NCBI GenBank assembly: GCA_045586125.1
Contig: JAZMZT010000218.1
Span: 22,006-86,005 of the forward strand
DNA from: Bacteroidaceae bacterium
Lineage (GTDB): Bacteria; Bacteroidota; Bacteroidia; Bacteroidales; Bacteroidaceae
Length of the DNA: 64,000 nt
Reading direction: 5' to 3'
Part shown: piece by piece, positions 3,494 through 35,984 of the stretch
Numbering within the stretch: the stretch's first letter is position 1
Layout: each line of letters opens with the position of its first letter
The notes under the pieces: generated by a model
What the model was told of the DNA's origin: nothing
What the model saw: the letters and a program-made list of their open reading frames with translations, nothing else
The model's database searches: none
Translations under genes and position numbers: made by a program

Positions 3494-3502
3494 CCCCCCC
3501 CC
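3494..3502 (+). repeat. C9 homopolymer tract T1 (GAAATTA-C9-A), intergenic
   Basis: Counted directly: ggtgAAATTACCCCCCCCCAcaat, 46 nt upstream of the exonuclease ORF. Confidence 0.9.
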
Positions 3503-3548
3503 ACAATAAAAAAACTAAAACTGAATAAAAAGTGACTGTAAACAATTA

Positions 3549-4208
3549 ATGCTGACTATGAAACATCTTGATATAACCTTTGACCTTGAGACCCTCTCTC
3601 TTGAGTCTAACGCTGCTGTCCTCCAGCTTGGAGCCGTTGCATGGAATCGTCGTGCCGACAGCCCTGAGACATTGCTTGTAACAGAGTCAACCCCCACCTT
3701 TCAGACCAGTGTCGATCTCCGCACCTGCGTAGGCAGCGGCTTTGACTTTGACCCCGAAACCGTCGATTGGTGGAACCACCGCAAGCCCGATGCCATTGCC
3801 GCCCTCGCCGTTGGTGACTGTTATCCCATAGAGGACTGCTTCCGTTTCTTCCTGGATTGGATCCAGGACACCATGGCCGCCCATCAGTGTGATACCGTCA
3901 CCCTCTGGGCGCAGGGTTGTGAACTTGACTTTCCCATTCTGCACCACATGGAGCGCAAGTTCAAATTCAAGACCCCGTTGCATTACCGCATGTGCCGTGA
4001 TGCCCGTACCTATGTCACCGAGACTCTCTACCAGCATTTCTCCAACATGGAAGTCGCAATGGAGAGTCCCGATGCAACCGAGGCCTTCAAGCGAATACCA
4101 AAACTTCCAGAGTGTCTTGAACTCACCCCCAACGTAGCTCATCACTCCCTGTCTGATGCCCTCTCTACCACCTGGGCAATCTGGTGGACCATGCACCGCC
4201 CCAAGTAA
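3549..4208 (+). CDS. DnaQ-like DEDDh 3'-5' exonuclease
   Basis: Exo I motif DITFDLETLS, a central acidic motif (CELDFPILHH), and Exo III H-x4-D (HHSLSDAL). An alternative start at ATG 3558 lies within the recurring GCTGACTATG context. Confidence 0.75.
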   Translation: MLTMKHLDITFDLETLSLESNAAVLQLGAVAWNRRADSPETLLVTESTPTFQTSVDLRTCVGSGFDFDPETVDWWNHRKPDAIAALAVGDCYPIEDCFRFFLDWIQDTMAAHQCDTVTLWAQGCELDFPILHHMERKFKFKTPLHYRMCRDARTYVTETLYQHFSNMEVAMESPDATEAFKRIPKLPECLELTPNVAHHSLSDALSTTWAIWWTMHRPK

Positions 4209-4249
4209 ACTTCAATCCAGTAGTCGCTCTTATATAAGAGCGCATCAAC

Positions 4250-7852: not shown

Positions 7853-7877
7853 CTGTAACAACTAAACATTAAAAAAT

Positions 7878-8468
7878 ATGGCAAGATATCGTAACACCCA
7901 AGACTTAGGCATCTTCATAGGTGCTCGTTTCCTTAACATCACCGTCACCGATGGTGGTCCTCAAATCCCCGGCATCTTCATACCCGTCGGCATCAATGGC
8001 ATAGACGTACAGCCAGATACTCGTGACGAGGATAAGCGTAACGCCTCCGGATTCCGCGCTTTCATCTCCACCACTCAGCGTAACTGCAACTCCAGTTACC
8101 TGAATGCTATCAAGCAGAACCTCATACGTAAGGGAGAGGATATAACCCCCTATAACGTCCCTGCCTATCAGGTCTGCTACACCCTCACCGAGGAACGCCG
8201 TAAACGTATCCGTGAATCCCTCTGCAACCGCCTCAAGAAAGAACATCCCGAGTGGAAAGACCTCAATGACGAACGTGGCAACGCCCTCAGTGCTGCCATC
8301 TCGCGCCTCATGCCCTACCAGATGGGTGACTCTTACCTCATAGAAGAGACTGGCTCCCAGCAGGCCGCCCGTCCCGCCGCAATGGAACCCCAGAACAACG
8401 GCTATACCCCTCAGGCCGCCGCCGCACCCTTCGATGCACCGTCCGATAACGGTGACTATCCCTTCTAA
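7878..8468 (+). CDS. putative ssDNA-binding-like protein (SSB-style disordered linker and acidic DYPF tip)
   Basis: 196 aa: a folded N-terminal part, then a Q/A/P/G-rich linker, ending in SDNGDYPF (compare the bacterial SSB tip DDDIPF). It lies between the helicase and the clamp. No canonical OB signature recognised. Confidence 0.45.
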   Translation: MARYRNTQDLGIFIGARFLNITVTDGGPQIPGIFIPVGINGIDVQPDTRDEDKRNASGFRAFISTTQRNCNSSYLNAIKQNLIRKGEDITPYNVPAYQVCYTLTEERRKRIRESLCNRLKKEHPEWKDLNDERGNALSAAISRLMPYQMGDSYLIEETGSQQAARPAAMEPQNNGYTPQAAAAPFDAPSDNGDYPF

Positions 8469-8491
8469 CAATCACTTAAAACCATACAATT

Positions 8492-9631
8492 ATGAAATTT
8501 TCAGCAGATTCCAGTGCTTTGCTCCGCACCCTCGGTTTCGTTAGCAAAGCCATCAGTCAAAAGAGTATCCAACCCATTCTCCTCTACGGCCTGGTCCGTC
8601 AGGATGGAGATCAGTTAACCATCACCGGCAGCAGCACCGCGTTCAGCCTCACTCTGCCTCTGCCCGTCGCTTTGCTGCCTGGTCAGGAGTTCCAGCCCTT
8701 CTGCCTCAACGTCTTTGATTTCATGGCCTACCTCAAGGAACTCCCCGCCGGTCCTATTGAGATAACCGTCGATTCAGGCAACTGGCTCACCACCGTAGTC
8801 TATGCTCAGGGTGAGTTCCAGATACCCTCCTCTGCTGCCGATGACTACCCGCAGATTGAGGTCAATGGTGATGCCGACCTCAGCTTCGCCCTTGAGCCGT
8901 CCGTCCTCCTGCCCGCCGTCAAGCAGGCCGCCGGTTTCATCCATGAGGATACCCTACGTCCCGCCTTCAACTGTGTCGCATTCAACGTCACCAATGAGGG
9001 AGTCACCTTCTATGCGTCCGATGGCCATATCTTCTACCGCTATGAGCATCAGCACGGAGTACCCTTCATTGATGAAGGCTCCCCCTCAGTCATCGGTGTC
9101 AACTACGTCTGTGTCAATGCCCTCGCTGCTGCCTTTGCCGATGCAGAGAGCATCACCATACGCCATTTCGCCAAGTACATAGAGTTCAGCAGCGGCTTCA
9201 TCCGCCTCATCGTCATGAATCTGGAGGCCAAGTTCCCCAAGTATGAGGCTATCATTCGCAAGACCAGCCCCTATCATATCGTCGCCGATGCTGCCCTGCT
9301 GCGTGCCGTCATCCGCCGTATGTCAATCCTCAGCCCTGAGAGCACCCGTCTTATCATACTCTCACGTGTCGAAGGTGGCATCTGCCTCTCAAGTAATGAC
9401 ATAGAAATGTCTAAGTCAGCCAAGGAAACCATCCTCTGTGATGACGTAACTCTGCCAGACGGCTACCGCATAGGCATCGCCTCCACCACTATACTCACCT
9501 CACTCGGTGTCATTGGTACGTCCGATGTCCGCCTGGAACTCGATGGCCCCGATAAGGCCCTCCTCTTCCGTGAGACCGATGCCTCCTCGCATGTCCTCTC
9601 ACTCTGTATGCTCATGCAACTCACAGACTGA
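8492..9631 (+). CDS. dnaN: DNA polymerase III beta sliding-clamp homolog
   Basis: 379 aa, the right size for three clamp domains. The N-terminus MKFSADSSALLRTLGFVSKAISQKSIQPILLYGLV...LTITGSSTAFSL follows the conserved DnaN opening pattern. Confidence 0.7.
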   Translation: MKFSADSSALLRTLGFVSKAISQKSIQPILLYGLVRQDGDQLTITGSSTAFSLTLPLPVALLPGQEFQPFCLNVFDFMAYLKELPAGPIEITVDSGNWLTTVVYAQGEFQIPSSAADDYPQIEVNGDADLSFALEPSVLLPAVKQAAGFIHEDTLRPAFNCVAFNVTNEGVTFYASDGHIFYRYEHQHGVPFIDEGSPSVIGVNYVCVNALAAAFADAESITIRHFAKYIEFSSGFIRLIVMNLEAKFPKYEAIIRKTSPYHIVADAALLRAVIRRMSILSPESTRLIILSRVEGGICLSSNDIEMSKSAKETILCDDVTLPDGYRIGIASTTILTSLGVIGTSDVRLELDGPDKALLFRETDASSHVLSLCMLMQLTD

Positions 9632-9957
9632 TGCGTAAGAGGTATTCATTATTCTATCAGACCGCAGGTACATACTACTATGTCACCACCGATGGCCGTA
9701 TCCTGAGCACTCGCGCTCAGGATACCCCACCGGAAACGTGGCGTGTCGTAGCCACCTATAACGGCAAGGGTTATCGCCGTGTCCGCCTGCAGGGCAAGAC
9801 CTTTAAGGTCCACCGCCTTGTGGCCGATGCCTTCCTGCCTAACCCGGACCACCTGCCTTACGTCCTCCACCTGGACGGAGACCGCACCAACAATAACGTC
9901 TCTAACCTCTGCTGGTCTGCCCGCCAAAGCAACCACCCTAACAACCCCGCCCGCTGA
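9631..9957 (+). CDS. HNH homing-type endonuclease
   Basis: GYRRVRL...KVHRLVADAF...HLDGDRTNNNVSNLCW is the HNH_3-type signature. Its start overlaps the clamp stop (TGATG). Confidence 0.8.
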   Translation: MRKRYSLFYQTAGTYYYVTTDGRILSTRAQDTPPETWRVVATYNGKGYRRVRLQGKTFKVHRLVADAFLPNPDHLPYVLHLDGDRTNNNVSNLCWSARQSNHPNNPAR

Positions 9958-9959
9958 CT

Positions 9960-10076
9960 ATGAAATGTAAAGACTGTTGTGACCCCTTTTGTCAACATCG
10001 CACCACCGATGCTACACGTGAATGCTCTCTTACTCGCCAAGGGTCTCAACTTCAACCTAACTATCCCGTATCCTAA
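9960..10076 (+). CDS. small Cys-rich ORF (38 aa)
   Basis: MKCKDCCDPFCQHRTTDATRECSLTRQGSQLQPNYPVS. The ATG lies in the recurring GCTGACTATG context, and the stop overlaps the methyltransferase ATG (TAATG). It is below the ORF-track length cutoff. Confidence 0.35.
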   Translation: MKCKDCCDPFCQHRTTDATRECSLTRQGSQLQPNYPVS

Positions 10077-10835
10077 TGGAACTTGACCGCATATACAATA
10101 TGGATTGCCTGGAAGGAATGAAATCCATGCCAGATGACAGTGTGGATTACAGCATCACCAGTCCGCCTTATAACTTCTGCTTACGGCTTCATGGTGGCAG
10201 GTACACACATCGTTCATCAGGAGAGCAGCGTGCCGGTCTTAAAGTAAACAAATATACCAATGGCCTGTCAGATTCTCTGCCTATGGAAGATTATTACCAG
10301 TGGCAGTGTGACTGCATAGACCAGATGCTCCGTCTCACTAAGGATATAGTCTTTTATAACATCCAGATAGTGACCGGCAACAAAAGCGCAGTACTCCGCA
10401 TCTTGGGTAAGTATGCTGACAACATCAAAGAGGTCCTTATCTGGGATAAGTGTAATGGAGAGCCCGCCATACAAGGAGGTGTCCTGAATTCGGAATATGA
10501 ACTTATTCTGGCTCTCAGCAAGAATGACTGCAAGAGCCGTCAGTTTTATAATGCGCAGTTTGAACGTGGTACCATGAGCAACGTCATACGTATAAACAAG
10601 AATCATGAGAACCAGCATCGTGCAGCCTTCCCTATGATGCTGCCGCGCACTTTAATTTCCAAATTTACCCCCCCCCCAATCGGTTATCTTAGACCCCTTT
10701 ATTGGGAGTGGAACTACAGCCGTAGCGTGCATCAAAGAGAAACGTCATTATGTAGGCTTCGAGCTTGATCCAAACTACTACAAATTAGCCGTCAAAAGAA
10801 TCAAAGAGTTCAGTATGCAACTCACCCTGTTATAA
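10076..10835 (+). CDS. beta-class SPPY DNA methyltransferase (N4-C/N6-A type), frame broken at a C10 tract
   Basis: Motif IV is ITSPPY near the N-terminus. After the C10 tract the AdoMet motif VILDPFIGSGTT...GFELDPNYY continues in the next frame to the TAA at 10833-10835. Nine C's would give one continuous ORF (..LISKFTPPQSVILDPFIGSGTT..). Confidence 0.8.
10668..10677 (+). repeat. C10 homopolymer tract T2 (CAAATTTA-C10-A)
   Basis: Counted directly. It lies at the frame break of the methyltransferase. Confidence 0.9.
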
Positions 10836-10866
10836 TGGAGTGGGGGAGTCTGTCTGAATTTTCCTT

Positions 10867-10902
10867 TTGTCCCTAACTCCCCGCCTGTCGAGCATACTTT
10901 TG
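10867..10902 (+). promoter_or_regulatory. conserved promoter cassette TTGTCCC-N21-TACTTTTG
   Basis: One of five copies with the same two boxes 27-28 nt apart (10867, 45821, 49880, 57571, 63729). The -7 box TACTTTTGGGTATAA is identical to the copy at 45848. Confidence 0.55.
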
Positions 10903-10924
10903 GGTATAATAAAACCACCCAACT

Positions 10925-12223: not shown

Positions 12224-12252
12224 CCCCGCACCCCAACAAATAGCGTTGCACC

Positions 12253-20779: not shown

Positions 20780-21043
20780 ATGGAAGAAAAGTTATTACCG
20801 CTAATCATTGAACTCATGAGGTCGCGTTTTGACAACTTTGACCGCATGACCGCTCAACTGACCATCACTCTTGACACCACCTTTGCTCAGGATCTCCGCA
20901 TGGAATCCATAGATATGGTTGACCTCATGATTGCTGTCGATACCGCCTTTGGTATAGACTCTCGTCAGGCCGATATCCACGCCTTCCAGACTATAGGTGA
21001 TTTGGCCCGTTACATCCTCTCCCTTAACCCCGGTGTAGTATGA
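20780..21043 (+). CDS. acyl carrier protein-like
   Basis: 87 aa. FAQDLRMESIDMVDLMIAVDTAFGI matches the ACP phosphopantetheine-attachment pattern (D-L-x-x-[DE]-S-[LI]-D-x-V-[DE]-L). Its stop overlaps the KAS start (ATGA). Confidence 0.65.
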   Translation: MEEKLLPLIIELMRSRFDNFDRMTAQLTITLDTTFAQDLRMESIDMVDLMIAVDTAFGIDSRQADIHAFQTIGDLARYILSLNPGVV

Positions 21044-22254
21044 ACGGCACAGTCATCACCGGCATGGGCATCTGGTCCTGCATAGGCCAGAATTGTGCCT
21101 CTGTGGCGGAATCTCTCCGCGCAGGCAAGAGCGGCATTGGTCTTGACCATCACCGCACAGAACTCGGTTATCAGTCTCCGCTTACAGGTATCGTCCCGTT
21201 CCCGGACCTCTCGGATTCAGACCTCTCCAACTCACAGCGTCAGTCACTCTCTGAACCCTCCGCCTACGCCTATATGGCCGTCCGTGAGGCCTTGGAGATG
21301 AGCGGCCTTAGTGACCTCTCCCGCTGCGGCCTTATCGTCAGCAATGACAGCACTGCTGCTGAGTTTCACCGGGCCGAGGATATCATGCGCTCCCGTCAGG
21401 ACTCCCGCCTCCTGGGTGCCTATCAGGTGTTCCGCTCACTCAACTCCACTGTCTCGCTCACGCTCTCATCTATCTTTGGCATCGGTGGTCTCTCCGTCAC
21501 CGTCAGTGCGGCCTGTGCCGGCGGTGGTCATGCCGTAGGTATAGCGCATAGCCTCATCCAGAGTGGCATACTTGACTGCTGCATAGTGGTCGGAGCGCAA
21601 GAGTGTAACCCCTTCGCGTTTCTGGGGGTCGATGGTATGGGGCTCATCTCCCGTCGCGCCGATGATCCCTCCGCCGCATCTCGTCCTTTTGACCGCCTCC
21701 GTGACGGTCTGGTGCCGTCGGGTGGGGCAGCGGCCCTGATACTGGAGTCAGAGTCCCGTGCCCGCGCACGTCTGGGCAGTATCATAGGTTATTCGTTCTC
21801 CACGTCACCCAGTTACATCACGCCTAAGAGCAACGTCATTCTTGACACTATGACCTGTGCCTGGCAGTCATGCCGTATATCAGTCCTCTACCAAGGCCTG
21901 TCACTTATAATGTCGCACGCCACCTCTACACGTGAAGGTGATACGGCCGAGGCTCAGGCCATACGCCAGTTCCTTGACAGTGAGCATTTCTTTGGCCGTA
22001 CCAAGCCGTATATAGCAGCCACAAAGTCTCTCACCGGCCATGAGTGTTGGATGTCCGGAGTATCACAGATCATCTACGCCATAATCATGAAACAGGGAGG
22101 CTTTGTCTTACCGCACGCATATCTCACTAATCCGGATTCCGCAATAGAAGGCCTCAAGATACCGCTTACTGAGGTTGAGGCAACCATCACCAACGTCCTC
22201 TGTAACTCATTCGGATTCGGTGGAACTAACGCCTGCATAGTCCTGAGTGACTGA
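21040..22254 (+). CDS. beta-ketoacyl-ACP synthase (FabF/FabB-like, Cys-His-His type)
   Basis: VITGMGIWSCIG opening; active-site Cys in VSAACAGGGHAVG; His motifs SHATSTREGD and KSLTGHECWMSG; C-terminal NSFGFGGTNACIVL. Confidence 0.85.
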   Translation: MNGTVITGMGIWSCIGQNCASVAESLRAGKSGIGLDHHRTELGYQSPLTGIVPFPDLSDSDLSNSQRQSLSEPSAYAYMAVREALEMSGLSDLSRCGLIVSNDSTAAEFHRAEDIMRSRQDSRLLGAYQVFRSLNSTVSLTLSSIFGIGGLSVTVSAACAGGGHAVGIAHSLIQSGILDCCIVVGAQECNPFAFLGVDGMGLISRRADDPSAASRPFDRLRDGLVPSGGAAALILESESRARARLGSIIGYSFSTSPSYITPKSNVILDTMTCAWQSCRISVLYQGLSLIMSHATSTREGDTAEAQAIRQFLDSEHFFGRTKPYIAATKSLTGHECWMSGVSQIIYAIIMKQGGFVLPHAYLTNPDSAIEGLKIPLTEVEATITNVLCNSFGFGGTNACIVLSD

Positions 22255-25004: not shown

Positions 25005-25027
25005 TTATTAACCGTCAACTGTTGATT

Positions 25028-25328
25028 ATGAGAAATTACCCCCCCCCATACAAGCCCCCAAACGCTCCGCTCTCGTGTTGCTGCGTTCGTCAGAACAGTG
25101 GTTCTCCGCATTGATGTCTATGTGCCGTTTCCTGGCTCTCGTACAGAGGAACGCTTTTATGGTACCGTCCATCACCGCTGCAACCAAGTCTATGACCGCT
25201 CTCTCGGTAACTGGGTTGCCCATCTTGACGGAGAGGATGCACTCCATAGTATCGTCTGCCAACGCTTTCCGTCGCTTGAACGTAAACCTTTTACGGTCCG
25301 ATTCAACGGAGGCCTCGTCACTTACTGA
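25028..25328 (+). CDS. small hypothetical protein, 5' end frame-broken at a C9 tract
   Basis: ATG 25028 (MRNY) runs into the C9 tract. The protein-like frame (VLRIDVYVPFPGSRTEERFYGTVHHRCNQVY..., track ORF 25098..25328) is reached from that ATG only if the tract has 8 C. As sequenced, the start would be GTG 25098. Confidence 0.4.
25039..25047 (+). repeat. C9 homopolymer tract T3 (GAAATTA-C9-A)
   Basis: Counted directly: atgaGAAATTACCCCCCCCCAtac. Confidence 0.9.
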
Positions 25329-25388
25329 GACTTTGTATAATAAAGATTATGTTAAATAGATAAATTCTTCCGCCCTACTGACCGCCGT

Positions 25389-26273
25389 ATGAGACTAATC
25401 TACCAACCCCAAGGCCGAGCCGCAGAGTACTCCCGCTATGCCGTCAATTTCTACAATGGCTGCACCAACCAGTGTACCTATTGCTACAACCGTCATTGCT
25501 CCGCATATAAGCTGCTGGGCAAACCGCAGGTAACGCTACGTGCAGGTTTTGACAATGACCCCCTCAAGGTCTATCGCGCCTTTGAGAAAGACATAGAGCA
25601 ACTCCGTTCAGAGTACCGCAATCTTGCAGACTGGAACCCCTTACAGCCCTTTGAGGTCGGTGAATTCGTTCATAACGGCCTCTTCTTTAACTTCGTCTCA
25701 GATCCATGCCTCCCGGAGACCATCGGTCTTAACTTTGCATGTATCAACCACGCGCTCTGCTCCGGTGTACCATGCTCCGTCCTTACCAAACGGGCCGATT
25801 TCATGACCATACCATCCGAGCGTTTCGCATGGTTCCACTCCAACCTTGGTGGCAGCATCAAAAAGGATATCCCCATAGAGCAGTTCTTTACCACCAACCG
25901 CCACCTGCTTACCATCGGCATGAGCCTCACTGGTTTTGATGATCAGGAACCCAACGCCTCCAGTACCTTGCAGCGTATCATGGCCCTCAAGCGTTTACAT
26001 CGTGCCGGCTTCCGTACCTGGGTCAGCTTTGAACCCGTCATAGACCCCGAGCGCACCTTTGACCTCTTCGGTCTGGTCTATGACTGCACAGACCTCTTCC
26101 GCATAGGCCTCCTCAATGGTAGCACTCGCCAGTACTATCCCAAAGATGTCCGTCTCCTCTATGACCGTATAGAGTATTGTAACCGTATGGACTCCCGTAA
26201 ACCAATCTTCTGGAAACACACCGTCACTGACCTCCTCGGTGTTCCTTCATGCACAGACTATTCCGCTAAATGA
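25389..26273 (+). CDS. radical SAM domain protein
   Basis: N-terminal NGCTNQCTYCYN is a CxxxCxxC radical-SAM cluster motif in the usual position. 294 aa. The stop overlaps the next gene (ATGA). Confidence 0.65.
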   Translation: MRLIYQPQGRAAEYSRYAVNFYNGCTNQCTYCYNRHCSAYKLLGKPQVTLRAGFDNDPLKVYRAFEKDIEQLRSEYRNLADWNPLQPFEVGEFVHNGLFFNFVSDPCLPETIGLNFACINHALCSGVPCSVLTKRADFMTIPSERFAWFHSNLGGSIKKDIPIEQFFTTNRHLLTIGMSLTGFDDQEPNASSTLQRIMALKRLHRAGFRTWVSFEPVIDPERTFDLFGLVYDCTDLFRIGLLNGSTRQYYPKDVRLLYDRIEYCNRMDSRKPIFWKHTVTDLLGVPSCTDYSAK

Positions 26274-27254
26274 AACCAGTACATAAGGCACCGGAGCCAA
26301 TACCGGCAGAATATCTTGATCAGGTGTTCTTTGAGGATTGTTACTATGGTCTTGACCGCCTTCCGTCAGGATCCATGGACTGTGTAATTACATCTCCGCC
26401 TTATTATGCTCTGCGTGACTACAATATGAATGGGCAGATAGGCCTTGAGGCTACTCCTACGGAATATATAGAGCGTTTGGTTAATGTTTTTACAAAAGTC
26501 AAACGTGTGCTCAAGGATACCGGTGTTATGTGGATTGTCATAGGTGATACCTATTGCAATTCCACGAAAGGAGCCGCAAACTACCCTGATAATGCCAAAC
26601 AATATCTGCAGGGTACCAATCGTGGAACTCTTAGCAAGGCTACCTCTTTCCGCTATAATAGCGGTTTCCATACAGGTGAACTCTTAGGTAACCCTTGGAG
26701 GCTCGCTTTTGCTCTTCGTGATGCCGGCTGGCGTTTGCGTCAGGATGTAATCTGGCATAAGCCTAATCCTATGCCTGAGCCTGTTAAAAGCCGTTGCACA
26801 CGCTCTCATGAGTATATTTTCATGTTCACCAAGAGCAATAAATATTATTTCAATTCTGAGGCTCTCCGCGAACCGGCGGTAAAAGGAATTGTTAAGGGGG
26901 AGTTCAACCACCGCAATGTCAAGTTTCTCGTACCAGGCCATAAACAGGTGCAGTTCCGTGGCAGTAATGTTTCTGATGTCATGCGTAACCGTCGTGATGT
27001 CTGGACCATCTCTGTTCGTCCGTCTATTGGTGATCACCATGCCGCATACCCTATTGATATACCTCTCACTTGCGCAGCCCTTAGCTGCTGCATGGGGGGG
27101 GGTAATTTTGGACCCCTTCATGGGCACAGGTACCACCGCCCGCGCCGCCCTCATGACAGGACGTCACTATATAGGCTTTGAAATCAACCCAGATTACAAA
27201 GCTCTGATAAAGACAAACATTTGTGTTACTAAGAATCTGTTTAATGATATTTAA
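26270..27254 (+). CDS. beta-class SPPY DNA methyltransferase, frame broken at a G9 tract
   Basis: Motif IV is [13 protein letters not shown]. After the G9 tract, [32 protein letters not shown] continues in the frame of track ORF 26889..27254. Eight G's give one continuous ORF (..[19 protein letters not shown]..). Confidence 0.8.
27094..27102 (+). repeat. G9 homopolymer tract T4 (reverse complement CAAAATTA-C9-A)
   Basis: Counted directly: tgcATGGGGGGGGGTAATTTTgg. Confidence 0.9.
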
Positions 27255-27304
27255 TTTGAAAACATCGTCACTGTGTTCCTTCATGTGGTAAATATTGATC
27301 TCTT

Positions 27305-29005
27305 ATGAGTAAAGTAAAAATACATTACATAGACCTTTTTTGTGGTGCCGGCGGTACTACTACAGGAGTTGAGCAAGCGCATATTGATAATATCAAGTGT
27401 GCCGATGTCATAGCCTGTGTCAATCATGATCCTCATGCTATTGCTTCACACCTGGCAAATCATCCATCGGCAAAACATTTCACTGAGGATATCCGCACTC
27501 TCGATGTCCGTCCTCTCGCAGAACTATGTCAGAATGTTCGTGCCAACCATCCTCATGATTATATAGTGCTTTGGGCATCGCTTGAATGCACCAATTTCTC
27601 TAAGGCAAAAGGAGGTATGCCTCGTGATGCAGACAGCCGTACTCTTGCCGAGCATTTGTTTAGGTATATAGAAGCCATCTGTCCGGACTATATTCAGATA
27701 GAGAATGTAGAAGAGTTTATGTGCTGGGGAGACCTGGATATCCACGGCCGTCCAGTAAGTAAGGATAAAGGTCGCTGTTATATCAAATGGGTAAAAGATG
27801 TAATGCGTTATGGCTATGACTTTGATTACAAGATCCTCAATGCTGCCGATTTTGGTGCATATACCAGTCGCCGTCGTTACTTCGGACTGTTTGCCAAACA
27901 TGGACTACCTATCGTTTTTCCTGAGCAAACACACGCAAAGAATGGTGATGAAGGTGGTCTGTTCAATCATTATAAGAAATGGAAACCAGTACGTGAGGTT
28001 CTTGACCTGGAAGATGAGGGTGATAGTATCTTTGGTCGTAAGAAACCTCTCTGTGAAAAGACCCTTGAGCGCATCTTTGCCGGGTTGGTCAAGTTTGTGG
28101 CTGGCGGTAAGGATAAATTTCTGCTTAAATGGAATTCGATGAAGGACGGGCGATATAGGGCACCCTCCATTGATGAACCTTGCCCTACGTTGCCATGTCG
28201 AAATGCTATCGGAGTGGTCAAGGCGCAATTTATTTCAAAGCAGTATAGTGGTCATCCTATGTCAAAGAACAAAAGTATAGAAGAACCGTCTGGTACTATT
28301 ACAACTATACCACATGAGGCGTTCGTGACGGCGTATTATGGTAACGGATTTAATTCTGACATACAGGAGCCGATGCCGACCATACCGACTAAGGATCGTT
28401 TTGGGCTGGTTTGTCCGAAATTTATATCTGAATATTATGGCGGTGCTGAACACAATCATAGTATAGACGTTCCGGCTACAACGATTAGAACGCGAGGCTG
28501 CCATGCTATTTTGACTACACAGTTTCTTGACAATCAGTATGGTAAAAGCCAGCCGACCTCCATTGATACCGCCGCGCCAACTGTCGTCAAAAATCCCAAG
28601 CAGAGCCTCGTTAGTACACAGTATCTGATGAATCCCTATTCGTTTAAGAGCAATGGTGGTAGTATCGATCATCCATGCTTCACGCTGATAGCACGTATGG
28701 ACAAGATGCCGCCATATCTAATCTCTACAGAGCAGGGGGTAGGCATCAAAATCTTCGACGATGACAGTCCCATGACTCGTAAGATTAAGGAGTTTATGGC
28801 CGCATACGGCATTGTAGATATAAAGATGCGTATGCTCAAGATAGATGAACTTAAACGCATACAAGGTTTCCCGTCAGACTATGTACTTGTAGGCAATCAG
28901 GCTGAACAAAAGAAATTCATAGGCAACGCTGTCGAAGTTGGCATGAGTCGTGTTCTGTGTGAAGCTCTTTACTCTGCCTTAGAACCTTTGAAAGCCGTAA
29001 TATAA
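27305..29005 (+). CDS. DNA (cytosine-5) methyltransferase
   Basis: Motif I DLFCGAGG, catalytic Cys region LECTNFS, ENV motif QIENVEEF, RRRYF, and C-terminal GNAV. 566 aa with a long variable region. Confidence 0.85.
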   Translation: MSKVKIHYIDLFCGAGGTTTGVEQAHIDNIKCADVIACVNHDPHAIASHLANHPSAKHFTEDIRTLDVRPLAELCQNVRANHPHDYIVLWASLECTNFSKAKGGMPRDADSRTLAEHLFRYIEAICPDYIQIENVEEFMCWGDLDIHGRPVSKDKGRCYIKWVKDVMRYGYDFDYKILNAADFGAYTSRRRYFGLFAKHGLPIVFPEQTHAKNGDEGGLFNHYKKWKPVREVLDLEDEGDSIFGRKKPLCEKTLERIFAGLVKFVAGGKDKFLLKWNSMKDGRYRAPSIDEPCPTLPCRNAIGVVKAQFISKQYSGHPMSKNKSIEEPSGTITTIPHEAFVTAYYGNGFNSDIQEPMPTIPTKDRFGLVCPKFISEYYGGAEHNHSIDVPATTIRTRGCHAILTTQFLDNQYGKSQPTSIDTAAPTVVKNPKQSLVSTQYLMNPYSFKSNGGSIDHPCFTLIARMDKMPPYLISTEQGVGIKIFDDDSPMTRKIKEFMAAYGIVDIKMRMLKIDELKRIQGFPSDYVLVGNQAEQKKFIGNAVEVGMSRVLCEALYSALEPLKAVI

Positions 29006-29007
29006 CT

Positions 29008-29460
29008 ATGGAAAAGGTTGGACGTATCACAATTATAAATCCTGATGGAGAGCCGGTTTGCGTAGCTAAATCCGGAACGATACGTATTGACGGTGTTGTG
29101 TACTCCCAAAAAGAGAGTCTATATAAAGATCCTGTCACCTTTACCTGTAGCGTAAAACCCAGTAAAGAGACATTAGAAAAAATTGAATCTATGTCGCAGT
29201 TCTACGATGCTCTTCGTGTAAAGATAACGGATTGCTTGGTGTTCTATTTGCGCAACAGAATAGTACCTCCTTTACGTGGTAACATTACTCGTGCTAAACT
29301 AAAAAAGCGTGACATAAAAGGAATCCTTATTTGCAAGGTAGATCCTTACTCTCTGTGTGGAATAGTCCAAGGTGGTAATGCTATCATGAAGGATGGTCAT
29401 ATTTCCCGTTTTGATTCCCTTGATGATAAAGTGTATGAACTAATCAAAATCAAATACTGA
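29008..29460 (+). CDS. hypothetical protein
   Basis: ORF track, 150 aa. Starts 3 nt after the upstream stop. Confidence 0.55.
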   Translation: MEKVGRITIINPDGEPVCVAKSGTIRIDGVVYSQKESLYKDPVTFTCSVKPSKETLEKIESMSQFYDALRVKITDCLVFYLRNRIVPPLRGNITRAKLKKRDIKGILICKVDPYSLCGIVQGGNAIMKDGHISRFDSLDDKVYELIKIKY

Positions 29461-29461
29461 T

Positions 29462-29953
29462 ATGAGTTGGATTACAGAAGTATTTATAGGCATCCGTTGT
29501 GACCGCTGTCATGAGATATATGAAGGCAGTAGTGATTGCTCATTCTTTTGTGATAAGGAATCCGCTGCTGAGTATGCGTCCGAGGATGGTTGGCTCCTTG
29601 AAAACGGCCACCATTACTGTCCTAACTGTTGGACGGATAATGAGGATGAGACCGAGCATATTATTCCGCCCGCCATTCCTCAGAGTATTTTCCGCCTGCA
29701 GGCTCTCTTACCTAACCTCACTGGCACTACACACCCAGTAGATTTCCGGGAGGATCCAGATAACTACTATTTTGAAATGTATATGGATCAGCATAAAGCT
29801 CCTGGTTTCAAGACAGAACTCCAGGCGTATGATTTCGATGCTATCCGTTTCACTCTCCAGCGAGATTTCCATGTTAATTATCTCAATGAGAATGGTCGCG
29901 TAATCCTTCCAAAAGTCATTATCCGTATCCCTAAATTCCCCGGTGAGAAATGA
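29462..29953 (+). CDS. hypothetical protein with N-terminal CxxC...CxxC zinc-ribbon-like pairs
   Basis: ORF track, 163 aa, with CDRCHE...CPNC. Confidence 0.55.
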   Translation: MSWITEVFIGIRCDRCHEIYEGSSDCSFFCDKESAAEYASEDGWLLENGHHYCPNCWTDNEDETEHIIPPAIPQSIFRLQALLPNLTGTTHPVDFREDPDNYYFEMYMDQHKAPGFKTELQAYDFDAIRFTLQRDFHVNYLNENGRVILPKVIIRIPKFPGEK

Positions 29954-30366
29954 AACTCTTTGACTTCCTAAAACGTAAGCCTAAGACCTTCAACGACCTC
30001 GTTGCAGGTGACACCCTCTATATCTGGTGGATGACTGGTCTTTATTACTTTAAGATAAAGTCTGTCAAGCGTTTGGATAGTGTTATAGAGGATGACTATA
30101 ATTTAGAGATTACCACAACTGGTATGTTTGATGGTGATGGTAAATACACAATACCAAACCTTGTCCGTAATTTCTCTGAGTTTGTCTATGGTACTGATGG
30201 CTGGCATGAATATAAGGTTTATGGCACTTCATGTCGTGGTACCAAACGTTTTTTGCGTCGCATACTCCGTCGTGACCTACGTGAACTCCGCCATAATACA
30301 CGTGGTTGGCTTCATCTTTTTAAAACATTAAAAAGGTATGAACACTCAGATTCAGCTAATAATTGA
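29950..30366 (+). CDS. hypothetical protein
   Basis: ORF track, 138 aa, with ATGA overlap to the upstream gene. Confidence 0.5.
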   Translation: MKLFDFLKRKPKTFNDLVAGDTLYIWWMTGLYYFKIKSVKRLDSVIEDDYNLEITTTGMFDGDGKYTIPNLVRNFSEFVYGTDGWHEYKVYGTSCRGTKRFLRRILRRDLRELRHNTRGWLHLFKTLKRYEHSDSANN

Positions 30367-30850
30367 CCGTTTCACTACTGCTCATGGCTATAACCGTTGG
30401 CTCGATGCCAGTGAGTTGGAGCAGCTTTTGAACAACTTCGTAGAGGAACTCCGTAAAGCTGGCCTCCTCATGCCTACTCTGTCCGCCGGTGCTTTGGCTC
30501 TCTGCCAGGAGCGTGAACGTCAGATCACGCAGAAAGGATTCACTGCGCAGCACGACCACTTTGAACCTCTACTCGGTTTCGTACAGGCCGCTCTGTACTA
30601 CACAGAGTGCGGCTTCTTTGCTTACCGTCATCGTAACGATTCTGATTGCATAGAGCGTATGGTGTCCGATGATTCCAAAGACATCCACAATAAGTGGCCC
30701 TTTGTTTGGGATAAGGCTCACCGTAAACCCAGCAATAATGCCATCTTCAATTTTACAAAGGCCGGAGCTCTCCTCGCTGCCGCTATAGACAAACTGATGG
30801 ACGAGAAGGCCTTCCGCGAATGGTATAATCAACAAACTCAATTCAAATAA
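30338..30850 (+). CDS. hypothetical protein
   Basis: ORF track, 170 aa. Confidence 0.5.
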   Translation: MNTQIQLIIDRFTTAHGYNRWLDASELEQLLNNFVEELRKAGLLMPTLSAGALALCQERERQITQKGFTAQHDHFEPLLGFVQAALYYTECGFFAYRHRNDSDCIERMVSDDSKDIHNKWPFVWDKAHRKPSNNAIFNFTKAGALLAAAIDKLMDEKAFREWYNQQTQFK

Positions 30851-30854
30851 TATT

Positions 30855-31067
30855 ATGGCTAATGAAAGTAGTAGTTCTGGTGTTGGCTTTTTGGGCTTAC
30901 TCGGAATTGTGTTTATCGTTTTGAAACTTACCAATGTCATAGATTGGTCTTGGTGGTGGGTACTGGCTCCATTTTGGATAGACGGATTGTTAATAGTCCT
31001 ATTGTTGATATTATGGGCCGTTGTAAAGATTAAAGAAAAACGTTGGGAACGGTTTCTCAAAAAATAA
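30855..31067 (+). CDS. small membrane protein (2 TM segments)
   Basis: 70 aa with hydrophobic stretches GFLGLLGIVFIVL and WWWVLAPFWIDGLLIVLLLILWAVV. Confidence 0.55.
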   Translation: MANESSSSGVGFLGLLGIVFIVLKLTNVIDWSWWWVLAPFWIDGLLIVLLLILWAVVKIKEKRWERFLKK

Positions 31068-31069
31068 GT

Positions 31070-31411
31070 ATGATTAACAAAAGCATGTTTTTTACTGAGT
31101 CCAATTTGAAGGACTATCGTGATATGTCTTTGGATGACATATTGCGGGAATATCTTTTGTGCAAAGGTACTTTTGACAGCGACGGAAAATCCGTTCATGA
31201 GACAGTTGCGCCTAAGATGTTGATTGATTCTGGCCTTTTTGTCTATGGACTAAAATCAAATGCCACTAATAAAAAAGCGGTGGAATATTATTGTGAAAGA
31301 GAGGCTCAAAGGCGTAACCTTATGTCAGGTGGTGTCATAAACATTCCAAAGGATTTATGGGATGAATGCAATAAAAAGAATATGGATTTCTGCAAACGTA
31401 ATGTGTTATGA
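31070..31411 (+). CDS. hypothetical protein
   Basis: Track ORF 31043..31411. The in-frame ATG at 31070 follows the upstream stop. Confidence 0.5.
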   Translation: MINKSMFFTESNLKDYRDMSLDDILREYLLCKGTFDSDGKSVHETVAPKMLIDSGLFVYGLKSNATNKKAVEYYCEREAQRRNLMSGGVINIPKDLWDECNKKNMDFCKRNVL

Positions 31412-31596
31412 CAAACGGAATCGTAATAAAGGGAATATCCTATAAGGCCGTCAATGTGAATACTGCCGGCGTTGCTCCCTTTGATAATTGCTCCAAGTGT
31501 GATTTACGTCGTATATGTGATAAAACAGGCGTAGAATATGCCTGTCAGCTTTTTCAGAGAAAGGACCATTTGGTTTATTTCAAGAAATTAGGATAA
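31408..31596 (+). CDS. hypothetical small protein
   Basis: ORF track, 62 aa, ATGA overlap. Confidence 0.45.
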   Translation: MTNGIVIKGISYKAVNVNTAGVAPFDNCSKCDLRRICDKTGVEYACQLFQRKDHLVYFKKLG

Positions 31597-31946
31597 TGTC
31601 AAAGGTTTCTTCAATAAAAGTGGTTCATCGTCCATTCATGTACCGTGCTACCGGTCTGGATGGTAAAGCCTATGAAGGTTGGTATGTTCGGTTACACCCA
31701 CTGGGTGTCGATACGGAAAATCATTATCTTATTAATGATTCCGGTCGTAATGAAAACGGATTCTGGCATGAGATAGACCCCAACACATTAGAGCCTCTGA
31801 ATAAATTAGAGGATGTCCATCGTTACTCCGTTCATACCAAAGGTCTCCCACGTAATCCGTCCGTCGGTGATCAGGTCTTTGGATTTGATGGCAACGGTGT
31901 TTTCCATAACCTCAAGTTTGACGGCTCCTCCTGGGTAGAAAAGTAG
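31596..31946 (+). CDS. hypothetical protein
   Basis: ORF track, 116 aa, TAATG overlap. Confidence 0.5.
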   Translation: MSKVSSIKVVHRPFMYRATGLDGKAYEGWYVRLHPLGVDTENHYLINDSGRNENGFWHEIDPNTLEPLNKLEDVHRYSVHTKGLPRNPSVGDQVFGFDGNGVFHNLKFDGSSWVEK

Positions 31947-31950
31947 AAGT

Positions 31951-32184
31951 ATGAGTGAAGTTAATTTTGATTTGATTGATATAGATGATCTCCGCGCTGA
32001 GTGCGGTTATGATTCTGAAATTCCAGGGGTTTACGGTTGTACCCATCCTGAGAATTGTGCACACTATTGTACGGCTTCTAATTGTCCTTTGGGTCCATTA
32101 GCCGAGAAGGATGATTTTAAAGCGTTGAATCGTGAAGATGATTATAGTGAAGGACAATATGTAGTAATATATAAACAGCAATAA
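31951..32184 (+). CDS. hypothetical small Cys-containing protein
   Basis: ORF track, 77 aa. Confidence 0.45.
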   Translation: MSEVNFDLIDIDDLRAECGYDSEIPGVYGCTHPENCAHYCTASNCPLGPLAEKDDFKALNREDDYSEGQYVVIYKQQ

Positions 32185-32186
32185 AA

Positions 32187-32888
32187 ATGACGAGATTAAA
32201 ACATATAACCTTTACAGGTATAGATGAGAGAGTAGATGTTGCTCAACTCTGTTCAATCCAAAAGGAATATCCTATTGCTGAGTTTGGATTTCTCACCTCA
32301 TATCATTGGTACGAGAATGGGAACCGTTACTTGGACCCTCGTATGATTCGTAAGTTTCTTGGTAAGGATTTGAATCTCTCACTTCATATCTGTGGCTCGG
32401 CCGCTCATGATGCAACCTTGGGTGACTATGGTGATATCCATCACTTGACCTATGGAACCTATGGATATATTCCTCGTATTCAACTTAACATATCTGAGCG
32501 TAAGGATAATCCAAAAGTCGTTAGTTCTACTCCATACGGTCATGAGATTATTATACAGCAACGAGACATTAACAACTTTGAACTATTCTCCTCTACGCAA
32601 GAGAAATGGAGAGAATATTGTGGCTCATTGTCAATTCTCCTCGATGCCAGTGGAGGACGTGGCATTAACACTCCCCTCTCGGTGCTGCCTCTTTCTTGTA
32701 AGGTAGGATATGCCGGCGGATTTAATCCTGATAATGTTTCAGAGAAACTGTCATATCTTTTAGCTAACCATACAACAGGTGACTTCTGGATAGATATGGA
32801 GTCTGGGGTCCGCACTGATGATTGGTTTGACCTTGATAAGGTTGTTGACGTTCTCAAAAAATGTCGTAAGTGTTTGGATAATGAGTGA
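32187..32888 (+). CDS. TIM-barrel protein resembling phosphoribosylanthranilate isomerase (TrpF-like)
   Basis: LLDASGGRGINTP...VGYAGGFNPDNVSEKL...IDMESGVRTDDWFDLDKV parallels the C-terminal half of TrpF (lD.s.GG.G...lAGGl.p.Nv...iD..SGvE...KD). The match was made by eye only. Confidence 0.4.
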   Translation: MTRLKHITFTGIDERVDVAQLCSIQKEYPIAEFGFLTSYHWYENGNRYLDPRMIRKFLGKDLNLSLHICGSAAHDATLGDYGDIHHLTYGTYGYIPRIQLNISERKDNPKVVSSTPYGHEIIIQQRDINNFELFSSTQEKWREYCGSLSILLDASGGRGINTPLSVLPLSCKVGYAGGFNPDNVSEKLSYLLANHTTGDFWIDMESGVRTDDWFDLDKVVDVLKKCRKCLDNE

Positions 32889-33229
32889 TAGAAAAATTTG
32901 ATATTATGCCATACGGAGTATGTAAAGTATGTGGATGCACTGACACAGACCCGTGTTGTCATCCTGACCATGGTAACTGCTGGTGGGTAGATGACACTCA
33001 TGAGCTTTGCTCTCATTGTGCCGATAAGGTTATAGCCGATGACCCCGCCACCCAGCATTGCATCAACAGCAAGGGCTTTGACCCCTATGCAGGTGTAGAA
33101 CGCAAAGACCTTGCCTCTCTCGGTTGCCCGTTTCCTGATGACGATGGAGCCATGTGTGCAGAATGCTCACACATGAACTTCTCAAGTATCATGACCGGTG
33201 AATGTGATTTAGGAATCCGTATCCAATAG
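32885..33229 (+). CDS. Cys/His-rich (zinc-binding-like) protein
   Basis: ORF track, 114 aa (GTG start; alternative ATG at 32906), with CKVCGCTDTDPCCHPDHGNCWW...CSHC. Confidence 0.5.
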   Translation: MIEKFDIMPYGVCKVCGCTDTDPCCHPDHGNCWWVDDTHELCSHCADKVIADDPATQHCINSKGFDPYAGVERKDLASLGCPFPDDDGAMCAECSHMNFSSIMTGECDLGIRIQ

Positions 33230-33233
33230 TATT

Positions 33234-33455
33234 ATGCAGATAAGACTACTAAAAGATACACAGTGCGCCGGTGATCTCCATGAGATGACCAACTATCCGC
33301 GTTCATGGTTTAAACCCAAACCTACTCTTCCCAAAGGTACGGTCCTGACTGTATCCGAGGAATGGGCCAACTTTTTTGGAGCTTACTACCGTTGTGAGCA
33401 TGAGAATGGCACTTATGATATCCCCTGTGCCGCTGCTGAACTTTTACCTCTATAA
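33234..33455 (+). CDS. hypothetical protein, paralog family X
   Basis: 73 aa. Clearly homologous to the N-terminus of 37673..38056 (L..CA.D.HE.T.YPR.W.KPKP.LPKGT.L...E.W.NF.G.YYRCEHE.G.YDIP). Confidence 0.6.
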   Translation: MQIRLLKDTQCAGDLHEMTNYPRSWFKPKPTLPKGTVLTVSEEWANFFGAYYRCEHENGTYDIPCAAAELLPL

Positions 33456-33458
33456 GAT

Positions 33459-34262
33459 ATGGATAATCGTATGTTTCCAAAATCTGTCCTGGATCAAATC
33501 CAGTTTCATGAAGGCAATGAACCCATTAAGGTTATGGCACCACCCAAAATTGATGTTGACAGTCGTCCGCGCAAGGATCCGTTTGGCTCAATTCTCCCAC
33601 GTCTTAAACCAATCCATCTCACTGATGAACAGGTTCAGGAGCTAAAAAAGATAATGAGCACTACTCATAAATACGGCATCTGCTCTGCTGCCACTATCGG
33701 TGAGGTCGCCGACGCTGTCGATGCTATTGGACTGTTTTTTGCATATAACAATGATTTATTCAAACCAAGAATGAAAGCAAGTGAACTCCAGTGCGGAGAT
33801 ATCGTTCGTGTAAATAAAGATGTATGTTTCAAAAAAGGTACCGTTGTAAGGATTATAGGCATAGATCCTGATAATGTCCTGCCAGAGAAAGGGTTGAAGG
33901 GTTGCGTCACTTGTGTCGCTGTTAATGATCCTGACGGTTATCGCGGTGGAGTCTGGTTGGATTATATTGAACCAATCCCTCTCTCTCGTCCGATGTTTGA
34001 GCGTAATGGCTTTCAATATGATGATTTTCATAAAAGGTATGTCTATCTTGAAATTCACCCTTTAACCTATAAAGGAAAGGAAGAGTCCTTTATTCTTGAA
34101 GTGTCTATACTGAAAGAGAATTATGAGCAGGAGTTTGATGAGTGGAGAATAATCACTCCTTCTGTCAGTGCTCGTGTCGAGTATCTCCATCAACTGCTGG
34201 AAATGTTACGCTATTCTGGATGTAAGTTAGAATTCAAGTATTATGCCGAGACCCTTAAATAA
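33459..34262 (+). CDS. hypothetical protein; C-terminal domain related to family Y
   Basis: 267 aa. The C-terminal segment (MFERNGFQYDD..YVYLEI...LLEMLRYSGCKLEF) resembles the shared domain of 35545..35982 and 37269..37673. Confidence 0.55.
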   Translation: MDNRMFPKSVLDQIQFHEGNEPIKVMAPPKIDVDSRPRKDPFGSILPRLKPIHLTDEQVQELKKIMSTTHKYGICSAATIGEVADAVDAIGLFFAYNNDLFKPRMKASELQCGDIVRVNKDVCFKKGTVVRIIGIDPDNVLPEKGLKGCVTCVAVNDPDGYRGGVWLDYIEPIPLSRPMFERNGFQYDDFHKRYVYLEIHPLTYKGKEESFILEVSILKENYEQEFDEWRIITPSVSARVEYLHQLLEMLRYSGCKLEFKYYAETLK

Positions 34263-35481
34263 ACCCGCTGGCTTCGATGATCGCCTGCAGTACAGCATCC
34301 GTCTGCTCCGCAAGGCCCAGAAACTCGCCCTCACTTATGACGGCGATGACGGTTTCTTTCTTGCATTCTCCGGAGGCAAAGATTCTCAGGCTCTCTATCA
34401 CGTCGCCAAGCTGGCCGGTGTTCGTTTCCGCGCTCACATGAACTTTACCAGCGTAGATCCACCCCAGGTCATCCGCTTTGTCCGCACTTGCTACCCCGAT
34501 GTCATCAAACATGCACCCGTCAAGAGCATCTTTGCTTTGGCCGTGGACCGAGGCATCCTCCCCTCCATGCGCATCCGCTGGTGCTGTGCTGACCTCAAGG
34601 AGTCTGCCGGCGCAGGTAAGGTAACGCTCATCGGTATCCGCAAGCAAGAGTCCACCAGGCGTGCTAAACGTCATGAGATAGAGGTCAGTAACAAACAGTT
34701 TTCAGGAGACTTTGACCAGTTCAAGAAATGGCAGCGCAAGACCATCTCCGCAAAAGAGGCCGCCTTGCTTCGTCGCATGAAACGTGAAGGCAAAAAGGTT
34801 AATGAGGACTATTTCTCCGTCAATCAGCAAGACCAGGTACGTTGCATCAACGGTCAGGATTCAATCCTCATATCACCTATATTCAACTGGACTGAGAAAG
34901 ATGTATGGTACTTCCTCAATGAGGTAGTCCGCGTCCCTCATTGTGAACTCTATGACCAAGGCTACCGCCGTATAGGTTGCATCCTCTGTCCTATGTCATC
35001 TCCGCGTCAAAAGCAGCGTGAGATGCAGGACTTCCCTCATGTCCGTCGCGGCTGGCTCAACGCCATCAAGCAAATCCGTGCGGGGGGGGTATTGTCGAGC
35101 AAACCTACCTTCCTCCCAGAAACCGTCAATGGAGTTGGAAGCACAAGGAGTACTCGCCTCATCCCTCACTGCGAAACTGGAAAATACCCCCCCCCATCCG
35201 CTCAATCCGACACGACACAGCACTATGGTCGCTGTACTCCACCGGTGGAACCGAAAGACCAACTCCGGAATCTGGGCGGCTGGCTCCAATCTCCCAATCC
35301 CCAGTTCTGGACGGGTTTTCTCCAAGCCCTTCTCATAGCGGCGTGAGGGGGGGGGCAAAACGAGCCGTCTGAGGATGAAATCGCAGAGAAGATTTTCTCC
35401 TGGTGGATATCCGGTAAATCCTACAAAAAATGGTATGCCGATACCTACCTACAACTAAAATTTGACTTTGAATATGAGTAA
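34243..35481 (+). CDS. PAPS-reductase / DndC-like PP-loop enzyme, interrupted by three homopolymer tracts
   Basis: PP-loop FLAFSGGKDSQALY and C-terminal GCILCPM. The conserved-looking C-terminal end (QNEPSEDEIAEKIFSWWISGKSYKKWYADTYLQLKFDFEYE, stop 35479-35481) is in the same frame as the N-terminus, but an in-frame TGA at 35344 cuts it off. Removing 1 nt at each of the three tracts gives one continuous ORF. Confidence 0.7.
35082..35089 (+). repeat. G8 homopolymer tract T5
   Basis: Counted directly: ccgtgcGGGGGGGGtattg. Confidence 0.9.
35187..35195 (+). repeat. C9 homopolymer tract T6 (GAAAATA-C9-A)
   Basis: Counted directly: ctgGAAAATACCCCCCCCCAtcc. Confidence 0.9.
35347..35355 (+). repeat. 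G9 homopolymer tract T7
   Basis: Counted directly: gcgtgaGGGGGGGGGcaaaac. Confidence 0.9.
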
Positions 35482-35982: not shown

Positions 35983-35984
35983 CT

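Follow-up and report, generated by a model that had tools for sequence, protein, structure and literature searches.

The DNA analysed here (the window: 64,000 nucleotides (nt) of contig JAZMZT010000218.1, assembly GCA_045586125.1, positions 22,006 to 86,005, filed under a Bacteroidaceae bacterium) comes from an uncultured tailed phage of approximately 95–99 kb. It carries seven long G or C homopolymer tracts, T1–T7, which are very probably simple-sequence contingency loci phase-varying the DNA-modification genes of this phage. Six of them (T2–T7) lie within genes and T1 is intergenic; each tract-bearing gene is frameshifted in the window. Five of the seven tracts fall in three DNA-modification genes, namely two N6/N4 DNA methyltransferase genes (T2 and T4) and a PAPS-reductase-like gene (T5–T7). 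The comparative features by which contingency loci are recognized are found together here: sufficient repeat length, a shift of frame upon the change of one unit (T2–T7), polymorphism comprising both in-frame (ON) and out-of-frame (OFF) alleles, and over-representation with signs of selection. The coordinates, lengths and flanks of the seven runs are all as an initial annotation of this DNA had given them. That annotation had listed a slippage-prone contingency locus among several possible roles, a proposal which is borne out in that six of the seven tracts interrupt reading frames and all seven vary among near-identical assemblies.

All seven tracts are 8–10 nt long, which is long enough for hypermutability (7–8 nt or more for G/C runs). 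The lengths of G/C runs in the window are bimodally distributed, with 47 runs of 5 nt, a single run of 6–7 nt and seven of 8–10 nt, whereas a second-order Markov model of the window predicts 38 runs of 5 nt, 10.0 of 6–7 nt and 0.54 of at least 8 nt. Runs of at least 8 nt are thereby approximately 13-fold enriched (P~1.6e-6 for at least seven such runs; P~3e-9 under the same model for at least six runs of at least 9 nt), in agreement with the earlier estimate of fewer than one run of 9 nt or more in 64 kb, and the deficit of runs of 6–7 nt is also significant (P~5e-4). Moreover, GGG accounts for only 4% of the Gly codons in window genes, the G tracts being thus encoded against codon usage, and GGGGGG Gly-Gly pairs occur in these genes only at tracts. 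The excess of runs of at least 8 nt, the deficit of runs of 6–7 nt and the use of the rare GGG codon show that long G/C runs are selected at the nucleotide level.

The first methyltransferase gene, M1 (10,076–10,835; the tracts, their genes and the exonuclease gene described below are all given on the + strand), is frameshifted at T2 (C10; 10,668–10,677): the annotated open reading frame (ORF) ends at 10,768, and a C9 tract gives a protein of 252 amino acids (aa). T2 encodes ..SKFT-PP(P).. just before motif I (SVILDPFIGSGTT), the surrounding protein reading ..SKFT-PP-QS VILDPFIGSGTT. The second gene, M2 (26,270–27,254), is frameshifted at T4 (G9; 27,094–27,102), which encodes ..SCCM-GG- directly before motif I; G8 is the ON length and gives 327 aa, and G9 gives a truncated protein of 303 aa. 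Full-length matches to the methyltransferase profile PF01555 are obtained only after a 1-nt correction of the tract: M1 minus one C covers positions 1–221 of the 221 of the profile (E 1.6e-29) and corrected M2 covers positions 2–220 (E 8e-48), both corrected proteins containing the SPPY and DPFxGxGTT motifs. T2 and T4 share the same protein position, the pair of residues preceding motif I (VILDPFxGxGTT), in two different methyltransferases. Tracts are present in this very column in L050, L051 and L053 (59%-identical homologues) as well as in L087, L130 and L174, all six with G8; across homologues that are only 40–60% identical, they are either C runs (Pro-Pro) or G runs (Gly-Gly). Among the top 120 clusters of the M2 family, Gly-Gly stands at the tract position in 65, whereas about nine show a truncation or frameshift at this point, and many clusters of the M1 family end at the tract, with approximately 79% coverage; truncated forms that stop at the tract are thus recurrent in both families. 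The column that the tracts fill with Gly-Gly or Pro-Pro is occupied by different residues, over the same length, in other homologues. An origin of the methyltransferase tracts by insertion was rejected, since tract-free homologues have equal length there.

The tracts are also polymorphic. The relatives of the window are contigs of 95–99 kb retrieved from European Nucleotide Archive (ENA) and Logan metagenome assemblies, and all seven tracts differ in length among public assemblies that are 93–99% identical; the comparison across related phage genomes that had been suggested earlier therefore finds the tracts present and variable at each of the seven positions. T2 has its ON length, C9, in L214, P0261, P0264 and P0274, and its two OFF frames correspond to C10 (the window, L215, L216, P0263 and P0269) and C8 (L217–L222, P0262 and P0267), with each of the three lengths found on roughly 9–14 public contigs. 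T4 is G8 in L129 (327-aa protein P0001), further 327-aa ON forms being P0124, P0131 and P0136, and G9 in the window and in L128 (303-aa protein P0002). Two assemblies from different ENA samples, L210 and L211, agree over 20,877 of 20,879 positions, the only differences being a change of ±1 at T6 and another at T7; similarly, the alignment of L050 and L053 (97% identical) has four gap positions in 9,431 nt, three of which fall in tracts. In-frame alleles exist for T2–T7, and OFF alleles depart from them in both directions (-1, +1 and +2). Judging from these assemblies, the tracts are far more prone to insertions and deletions than the remaining genome, and ON and OFF alleles coexist in nature.

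T3 (C9; 25,039–25,047) follows the same logic in a gene of unknown function (25,028–25,328). It begins 8 nt past the ATG start codon (25,028) of this gene, which is out of frame in the window and encodes, with C8, a protein of 99 aa (MRNYPPHTSPQ...GGLVTY). T3 is C9 in the window, L210 and L211 and C7 in L128, and its C8 form is deduced from the 99-aa proteins. Two observations bear on the 99-aa frame: relative to L128 (99% identical), all four substitutions fall at its third codon positions, and the exact 99-aa ON product is found in a cluster of 19 public sequences.

The PAPS-reductase-like gene (34,243–35,481) has a more elaborate architecture, in which an N-terminal PF01507 domain is followed by a variable linker and a conserved C-terminal module of approximately 45 aa (..EDEIAEKIFSWWISGKSYKKWYADTYLQLKFDFEYE). 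The ORF called for this gene in the window ends with a stop at 35,346, and the C-terminal module (..EDEIAEKIFSWWISGKSYKKWYA..) is encoded in frame by relatives. T5 (G8; 35,082–35,089) is located at the end of the catalytic domain, at the junction with the linker (..IRAGG..), and is G8 in the window, L210 and L211 and G7 in L048. T6 (C9; 35,187–35,195), within the linker, is C9 in the window and L211 and C8 in L048 and L210; in L210 and L211, the equivalent GGAAATTA-C8/C9-A tract stands approximately 45 nt further on, in a replaced linker. T7 (G9; 35,347–35,355) marks the junction between the linker and the C-terminal module, with G8 as its ON length (..GVRGGQNEPSEDE..); it is G9 in the window and L210, G8 in L211, G10 in L048 and G7 in L049 (74% identical). 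The 317 nt from 35,019 to 35,336 are the longest stretch on the + strand of the whole window that lacks TAA, TAG and TGA in all frames, the next longest measuring 210 nt and the mean stop spacing being 23 nt. This stretch spans T5 and T6 and ends just before T7. Its counterparts in relatives measure 283–284 nt (L210 and L211) and 249 nt (L048), and are the longest in each locus; the linker is thus kept free of stops even though its sequence is partly non-homologous. Because it is open in all three frames, length changes at T5 or T6 alter the frame of the linker without terminating translation, and for the same reason a description of T5 and T6 as each '+1' in the window was dropped. Only one frame gets past T7, and only G8 (or G11) joins that frame to the C-terminal module. 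Three distinct combinations of T5 and T6 would each restore the frame and yield a full-length protein with a different linker, and the three tracts would gate the attachment of the C-terminal module to this putative DNA-modification enzyme.

The remaining tract, T1 (C9; 3494–3502), is intergenic, 84 nt past the stop of ORF 3021–3410 and 46 nt before the ATG (3549) of a gene for an Rv2179c-like 3'-5' exonuclease (3549–4208; PF16473, E 7e-21; also assigned to a PHROG exonuclease family), which directly follows it. Its length is C9 in the window, L214 and L217 and C8 in L215 and L216, and the approximately 85 nt upstream are near-invariant in four relatives that are 96–98% identical overall. Searches of the T1 region for ORFs, promoters, terminators, tRNAs and Rfam families detected none, and its predicted fold was not significant (z=-1.4); a terminator, a promoter or a structured RNA is therefore unsupported by these searches. 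A remnant of the tract-bearing gene of L046 was also considered and rejected, the likeness being confined to the tract and its flank. The exonuclease gene is a possible regulatory target of T1. An A7 run 5 nt after T1 (3508–3514) is also variable in relatives (A6, A8 and A9), so that two unstable runs adjoin each other at this place.

The contingency-locus model can be formulated as follows. Strand slippage during DNA replication would add or remove one G or C and thereby bring the downstream codons in or out of frame. Four genes would be switched independently in this way, i.e. the two orphan N6/N4 DNA methyltransferases, the 99-aa protein and the PAPS-reductase-like gene, and T1 would probably influence how the exonuclease operon downstream is expressed, through its promoter or leader. 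The positions of the tracts, their effects on the reading frame, their length polymorphism, their excess over chance and the selection at the nucleotide level are shown by the sequences; fast and reversible switching within a population is what we infer. The most plausible role, by analogy with the agt gene of coliphage T2 and with the phase-variable methyltransferases of bacteria, would be bet-hedging of the DNA-modification state of the phage against hosts with different restriction or modification-dependent defences. Methylation would protect against ordinary restriction and be a liability against modification-dependent defences, and each burst would consist of mixed epigenetic types.

Several points weigh against this model. 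Its support comes from the comparison of public assemblies, a mixture of states within a population and fast switching being predictions of the model; the benefit in terms of defence evasion is suggested by analogy, the effect of T1 on expression is conjectural, and the model leaves the conserved flank described below unexplained. In addition, all four single-tract genes are OFF in the window, each exactly one base too long, a uniformity that phase states set at random would seldom produce and that might stem from a technical bias in this particular assembly. In a rival reading, favoured by this uniform +1 excess, the homopolymers, a classic site of sequencing and assembly errors, would have been miscalled, the genes being intact and the length variation mere noise. 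We regard such an artefact as very improbable, as the same states recur in independent assemblies and studies (C8 at T2 in six samples and C10 in both L215 and L216; G9 at T4 in L128; C9 at T3 in both L210 and L211), the control runs of 6–7 nt are nearly absent rather than noisy, and the tracts are encoded against codon usage at a position conserved across homologues of 40–60% identity. The shared need for a -1 nt correction in all four single-tract genes could also be read as programmed recoding, in which the out-of-frame length is the functional one and RNA-polymerase slippage or +1 ribosomal frameshifting makes the full-length protein at a fixed low ratio. OFF forms are indeed common in public data, run lengths of 8–10 match the RNA–DNA hybrid, and CCC-C and GGG-G are known +1-shifty contexts. 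However, the length of the tracts is not conserved, in-frame alleles exist for each coding tract, OFF alleles deviate by -1, +1 and +2, and the switch works whether the coding strand carries a G run or a C run. Recoding as such thus appears improbable and, in-frame alleles being common and length not conserved, obligatory frameshifting or transcriptional slippage is excluded as the main mechanism; a signal for either had been among the possible roles listed in the initial annotation. Low-level slippage may nevertheless leak some expression from OFF alleles, as a complement rather than an alternative to contingency loci.

The flank of the tracts calls for a separate discussion. TA stands directly 5' of the C run (read on the C-rich strand) in six of the seven window tracts, against a background of approximately 9% (P~3e-6). 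The flank was also assessed on 71 unique long tracts from 46 loci, which had been fetched by protein homology and not by DNA pattern: TA precedes 56% of the long C runs, compared with 8.5% of the C4–5 runs of the same loci, TTA 35% (versus 2.2%) and ATTA 21% (versus 0.7%), and positions -5 to -1 are 75–86% A/T. The initial annotation had held that coding constraint does not account for this flank, and it does not: by our own tally, TA is present whichever strand codes (six of nine C-coding and eight of 11 G-coding tracts), and it also appears where the choice of base is synonymous, GTA being the Val codon next to the methyltransferase G run in six of six cases versus 11 of 43 without a run (Fisher P=9e-4). 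Two candidate sources were rejected. The Bacteroides -7 promoter box (TAnnTTTG) is matched only by T4 and, in reverse complement, T2, the consensus being TAATTT without the final G; an immediate stop after the G run (Gn-TAA or Gn-TAG) accounts for GTA in the methyltransferases and fails for C-coding tracts, where TA is equally frequent. Beyond the window, a mirror-image control gave a weaker contrast: AAATTA-C9-A has 39 matches in IMG/VR, and its mirror form A-C9-ATTAAA still has 16, a 2.4-fold asymmetry across the whole collection. This weak asymmetry implies that the flank preference belongs to this gut and rumen phage group and is not universal.

It could be argued that WWTTA-Cn-W is a dedicated element, recognized by a protein (a nuclease of phage or host, a primase at its start site or a targeted mutator) or spread by template switching from tract to tract, the flank being then a part of the mechanism. 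The restriction of the TA/TTA enrichment to long runs, its independence from the coding strand, the GTA bias at the Val codon and the recurrence of the flank and tract as a unit in the non-homologous linker of L210 and L211 are in line with this idea. Conversely, T7 (G9-CAAAAC) and the 'Gn-CAAAA' tracts of L050 and L053 lack TA and vary equally, so that the flank is dispensable for instability; the methyltransferase tracts are not insertions, the mirror asymmetry is only 2.4-fold, and a candidate recognizing protein was not identified. Both tracts of Campylobacter phage NCTC12673 also lack a TA flank, although two tracts are too few to serve as a control. A dedicated element of this kind therefore seems unlikely, and the single defined DNA or RNA element, or enzyme recognition or insertion site, envisaged by the initial annotation is not upheld, given also that the searches for RNA families, tRNAs and significant structures were negative. 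Within the contingency-locus model, it is possible that the flank tunes slippage through an easily melted boundary, offers a priming or nicking site or promotes template switching between tracts. We tentatively mention two linked readings, which have a small chance of being correct. In the first, the WWTTA-Cn (equivalently Gn-TAAWW) flank contributes to the function of the switch, either as a site for priming, nicking or binding or as a melting nucleus setting the slippage rate; if true, phage contingency loci would have a 'grammar' specific to this lineage. In the second, T5, T6 and T7 form a combinatorial frame-shuffling module that would produce several linker isoforms and a gated C-terminal domain, instead of three redundant on/off switches.

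Homopolymers or slippery runs that join two frames are known from programmed transcriptional slippage and ribosomal frameshifting, as in dnaX, insertion sequence (IS) elements and the phage tail G/GT genes. There, however, the run has a fixed length and is obligatorily out of frame, whereas the tracts described here vary and have in-frame alleles. In Quimbyvirus, a gut phage associated with Bacteroides, the reverse transcriptase of the diversity-generating retroelement (DGR) has been reported to be split over three frames, which was attributed to programmed frameshifts (PMC8008677). Closer parallels are found among contingency loci. Hypermutable polyG tracts are described in the Campylobacter Fletchervirus (Sorensen et al., Cell Rep 2021, as cited in bioRxiv 10.1101/2025.10.21.683753); according to this account, G/C homopolymers of 7–11 nt in phage ORFs switch frames and give phenotypically mixed progeny, as proposed here, but they concern receptor-binding proteins in an AT-rich genome with a Campylobacter host, rather than DNA-modification genes in a phage of 50% G+C that probably infects Bacteroidales. 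In coliphages T2 and T4, contingency loci include the DNA-modification gene agt (Gomez, Barrick & Waters, bioRxiv 10.1101/2025.10.21.683753). Homopolymer slippage reversibly inactivates this gene and hedges between defences against modified and unmodified DNA; the runs in these coliphages are A/T runs of about 6–9 nt with rates measured in culture, whereas those of the window are G/C runs of 8–10 nt for which the evidence is comparative, with several tracts per genome, concentrated in methyltransferase and PAPS-reductase genes. A phage methylase gene with a polyG tract is likewise known from Bordetella phage BPP-1, for which a single tract is noted (Liu et al. 2004, as cited in the same preprint). 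In bacteria, phase-variable methyltransferases (phasevarions) such as C. jejuni cj0031 with its polyG tract (PMC4889913) also carry a homopolymer in a DNA methyltransferase ORF which turns methylation ON or OFF, as the sequence suggests for M1 and M2. The bacterial enzymes, mostly of Type III or IIG, are encoded by the host and control host regulons; the phage enzymes are orphan Type II-like N6/N4 methyltransferases in which the tract has a fixed place, at the two residues preceding motif I.

The core mechanism is thus an ordinary one; what is added lies in the genes targeted, the conserved tract position, the rule of the flank and the T5–T7 architecture. Our literature searches retrieved no account of contingency loci in phages of Bacteroidales or of the rumen, and none of the motif-I position, the flank or a multi-tract linker open in three frames. 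The recognition of phage contingency loci is recent and has to date concerned cultured phages, namely Campylobacter phages and coliphages; a multi-switch version can now be added from an uncultured rumen phage lineage and many related metagenomic sequences, with tracts concentrated in DNA-modification genes and, in a large methyltransferase family, at one conserved position. Stochastic variation of the epigenetic coat of phage DNA would then be a counter-defence strategy in gut ecosystems, and the flank rule and the three-frame-open linker are concrete, testable additions to the design of such switches. In practical terms, tract genes are systematically cut short by gene callers, the 230-aa and 303-aa forms being present in public databases; accordingly, 'frameshifted' phage methyltransferases should not be dismissed as pseudogenes or errors.

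Other observations concern the methyltransferase loci. Public clusters built at 90% (P0002 and P0141) mix ON, +1 and -1 forms, one of them also including the neighbouring radical-SAM protein, and databases hold many 'methylases' of 202–234 aa truncated at the tract. The M2 gene is absent from L210 and L211, which are otherwise 96% identical, and the radical-SAM gene there adjoins the C5 methyltransferase (L210/L211:10,879–10,886); M2 is thus an accessory cassette as well as a phase-variable gene. An HNH_3 endonuclease gene (9631–9957) lies directly 5' of M1. In L049 (9997–10,814), six G8–G10 tracts, spaced by about 110–240 nt, belong to a series of short paralogous modules arranged in tandem, with the approximate form M..IG.IYG..GG..PTI.TSGGG...IEY..*; the series immediately precedes the C-terminal motifs of a C5 methyltransferase, and its modules may be target-recognition units that can each be switched separately. 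The window has a homologue of this C5 methyltransferase with multiple target-recognition domains (27,305–29,005), in which there is no tract. Other metagenomic phage or prophage loci contain six to eight G/C tracts within a few kb (L022:3641–8381, L065:2152–4010 and L149:662–7905, one of them in a Clostridia metagenome-assembled genome (MAG) from goat caecum), and multi-tract architectures are widespread in gut and rumen viral sequences.

The assignment of the window to a phage rests on its gene content and its relatives. It has 49.7% G+C and nearly all of its ORFs on the + strand, and encodes a tape-measure protein, a terminase, a protease, a sliding clamp and a BT4734-like/PriCT-2 primase, in addition to the C5 methyltransferase, the two N6/N4 methyltransferases and the PAPS-reductase-like gene. 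A megablast search of the window against cultured phages gave no match, and its primase has no relative in IMG/VR. The terminase is at most 32% identical to that of any phage isolate, the weak matches being to Porphyromonas, Flavobacterium, Polaribacter and Microcystis phages. The truncated M1 and M2 ORFs of the window are identical to two NCBI proteins (P0269 and P0139) encoded on a 95,594-nt contig, while exact look-ups of three window proteins and of P0139 retrieved no record. Among bacteria, M2 has its nearest homologues in rumen Bacteroidales MAGs, and the host is probably a member of the rumen Bacteroidales; the uptake sequences of Neisseriaceae and Pasteurellaceae, sought in the window as a clue to a host rich in contingency loci, were not found.

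Finally, the region 28,000–40,000 of the window has a G+C content of 40–43%, versus 50–57% elsewhere, together with a change of sign in GC skew, which suggests a mosaic module of other origin; T5–T7 lie within this region, in a locally GC-richer gene. At positions 20,780–22,254, an acyl-carrier-protein-like gene (relatives match PP-binding weakly) precedes a gene for a beta-ketoacyl synthase (PF00109/PF02801), the two forming an unusual auxiliary pair for a phage. Lastly, a TTTG(N0-2)TATAATAAA motif occurs at 10,899–10,913 and 25,331–25,345, just 5' of the genes starting at 10,925 and 25,389; with up to two mismatches allowed, it has five matches versus 1.4 expected, and may be a phage promoter.

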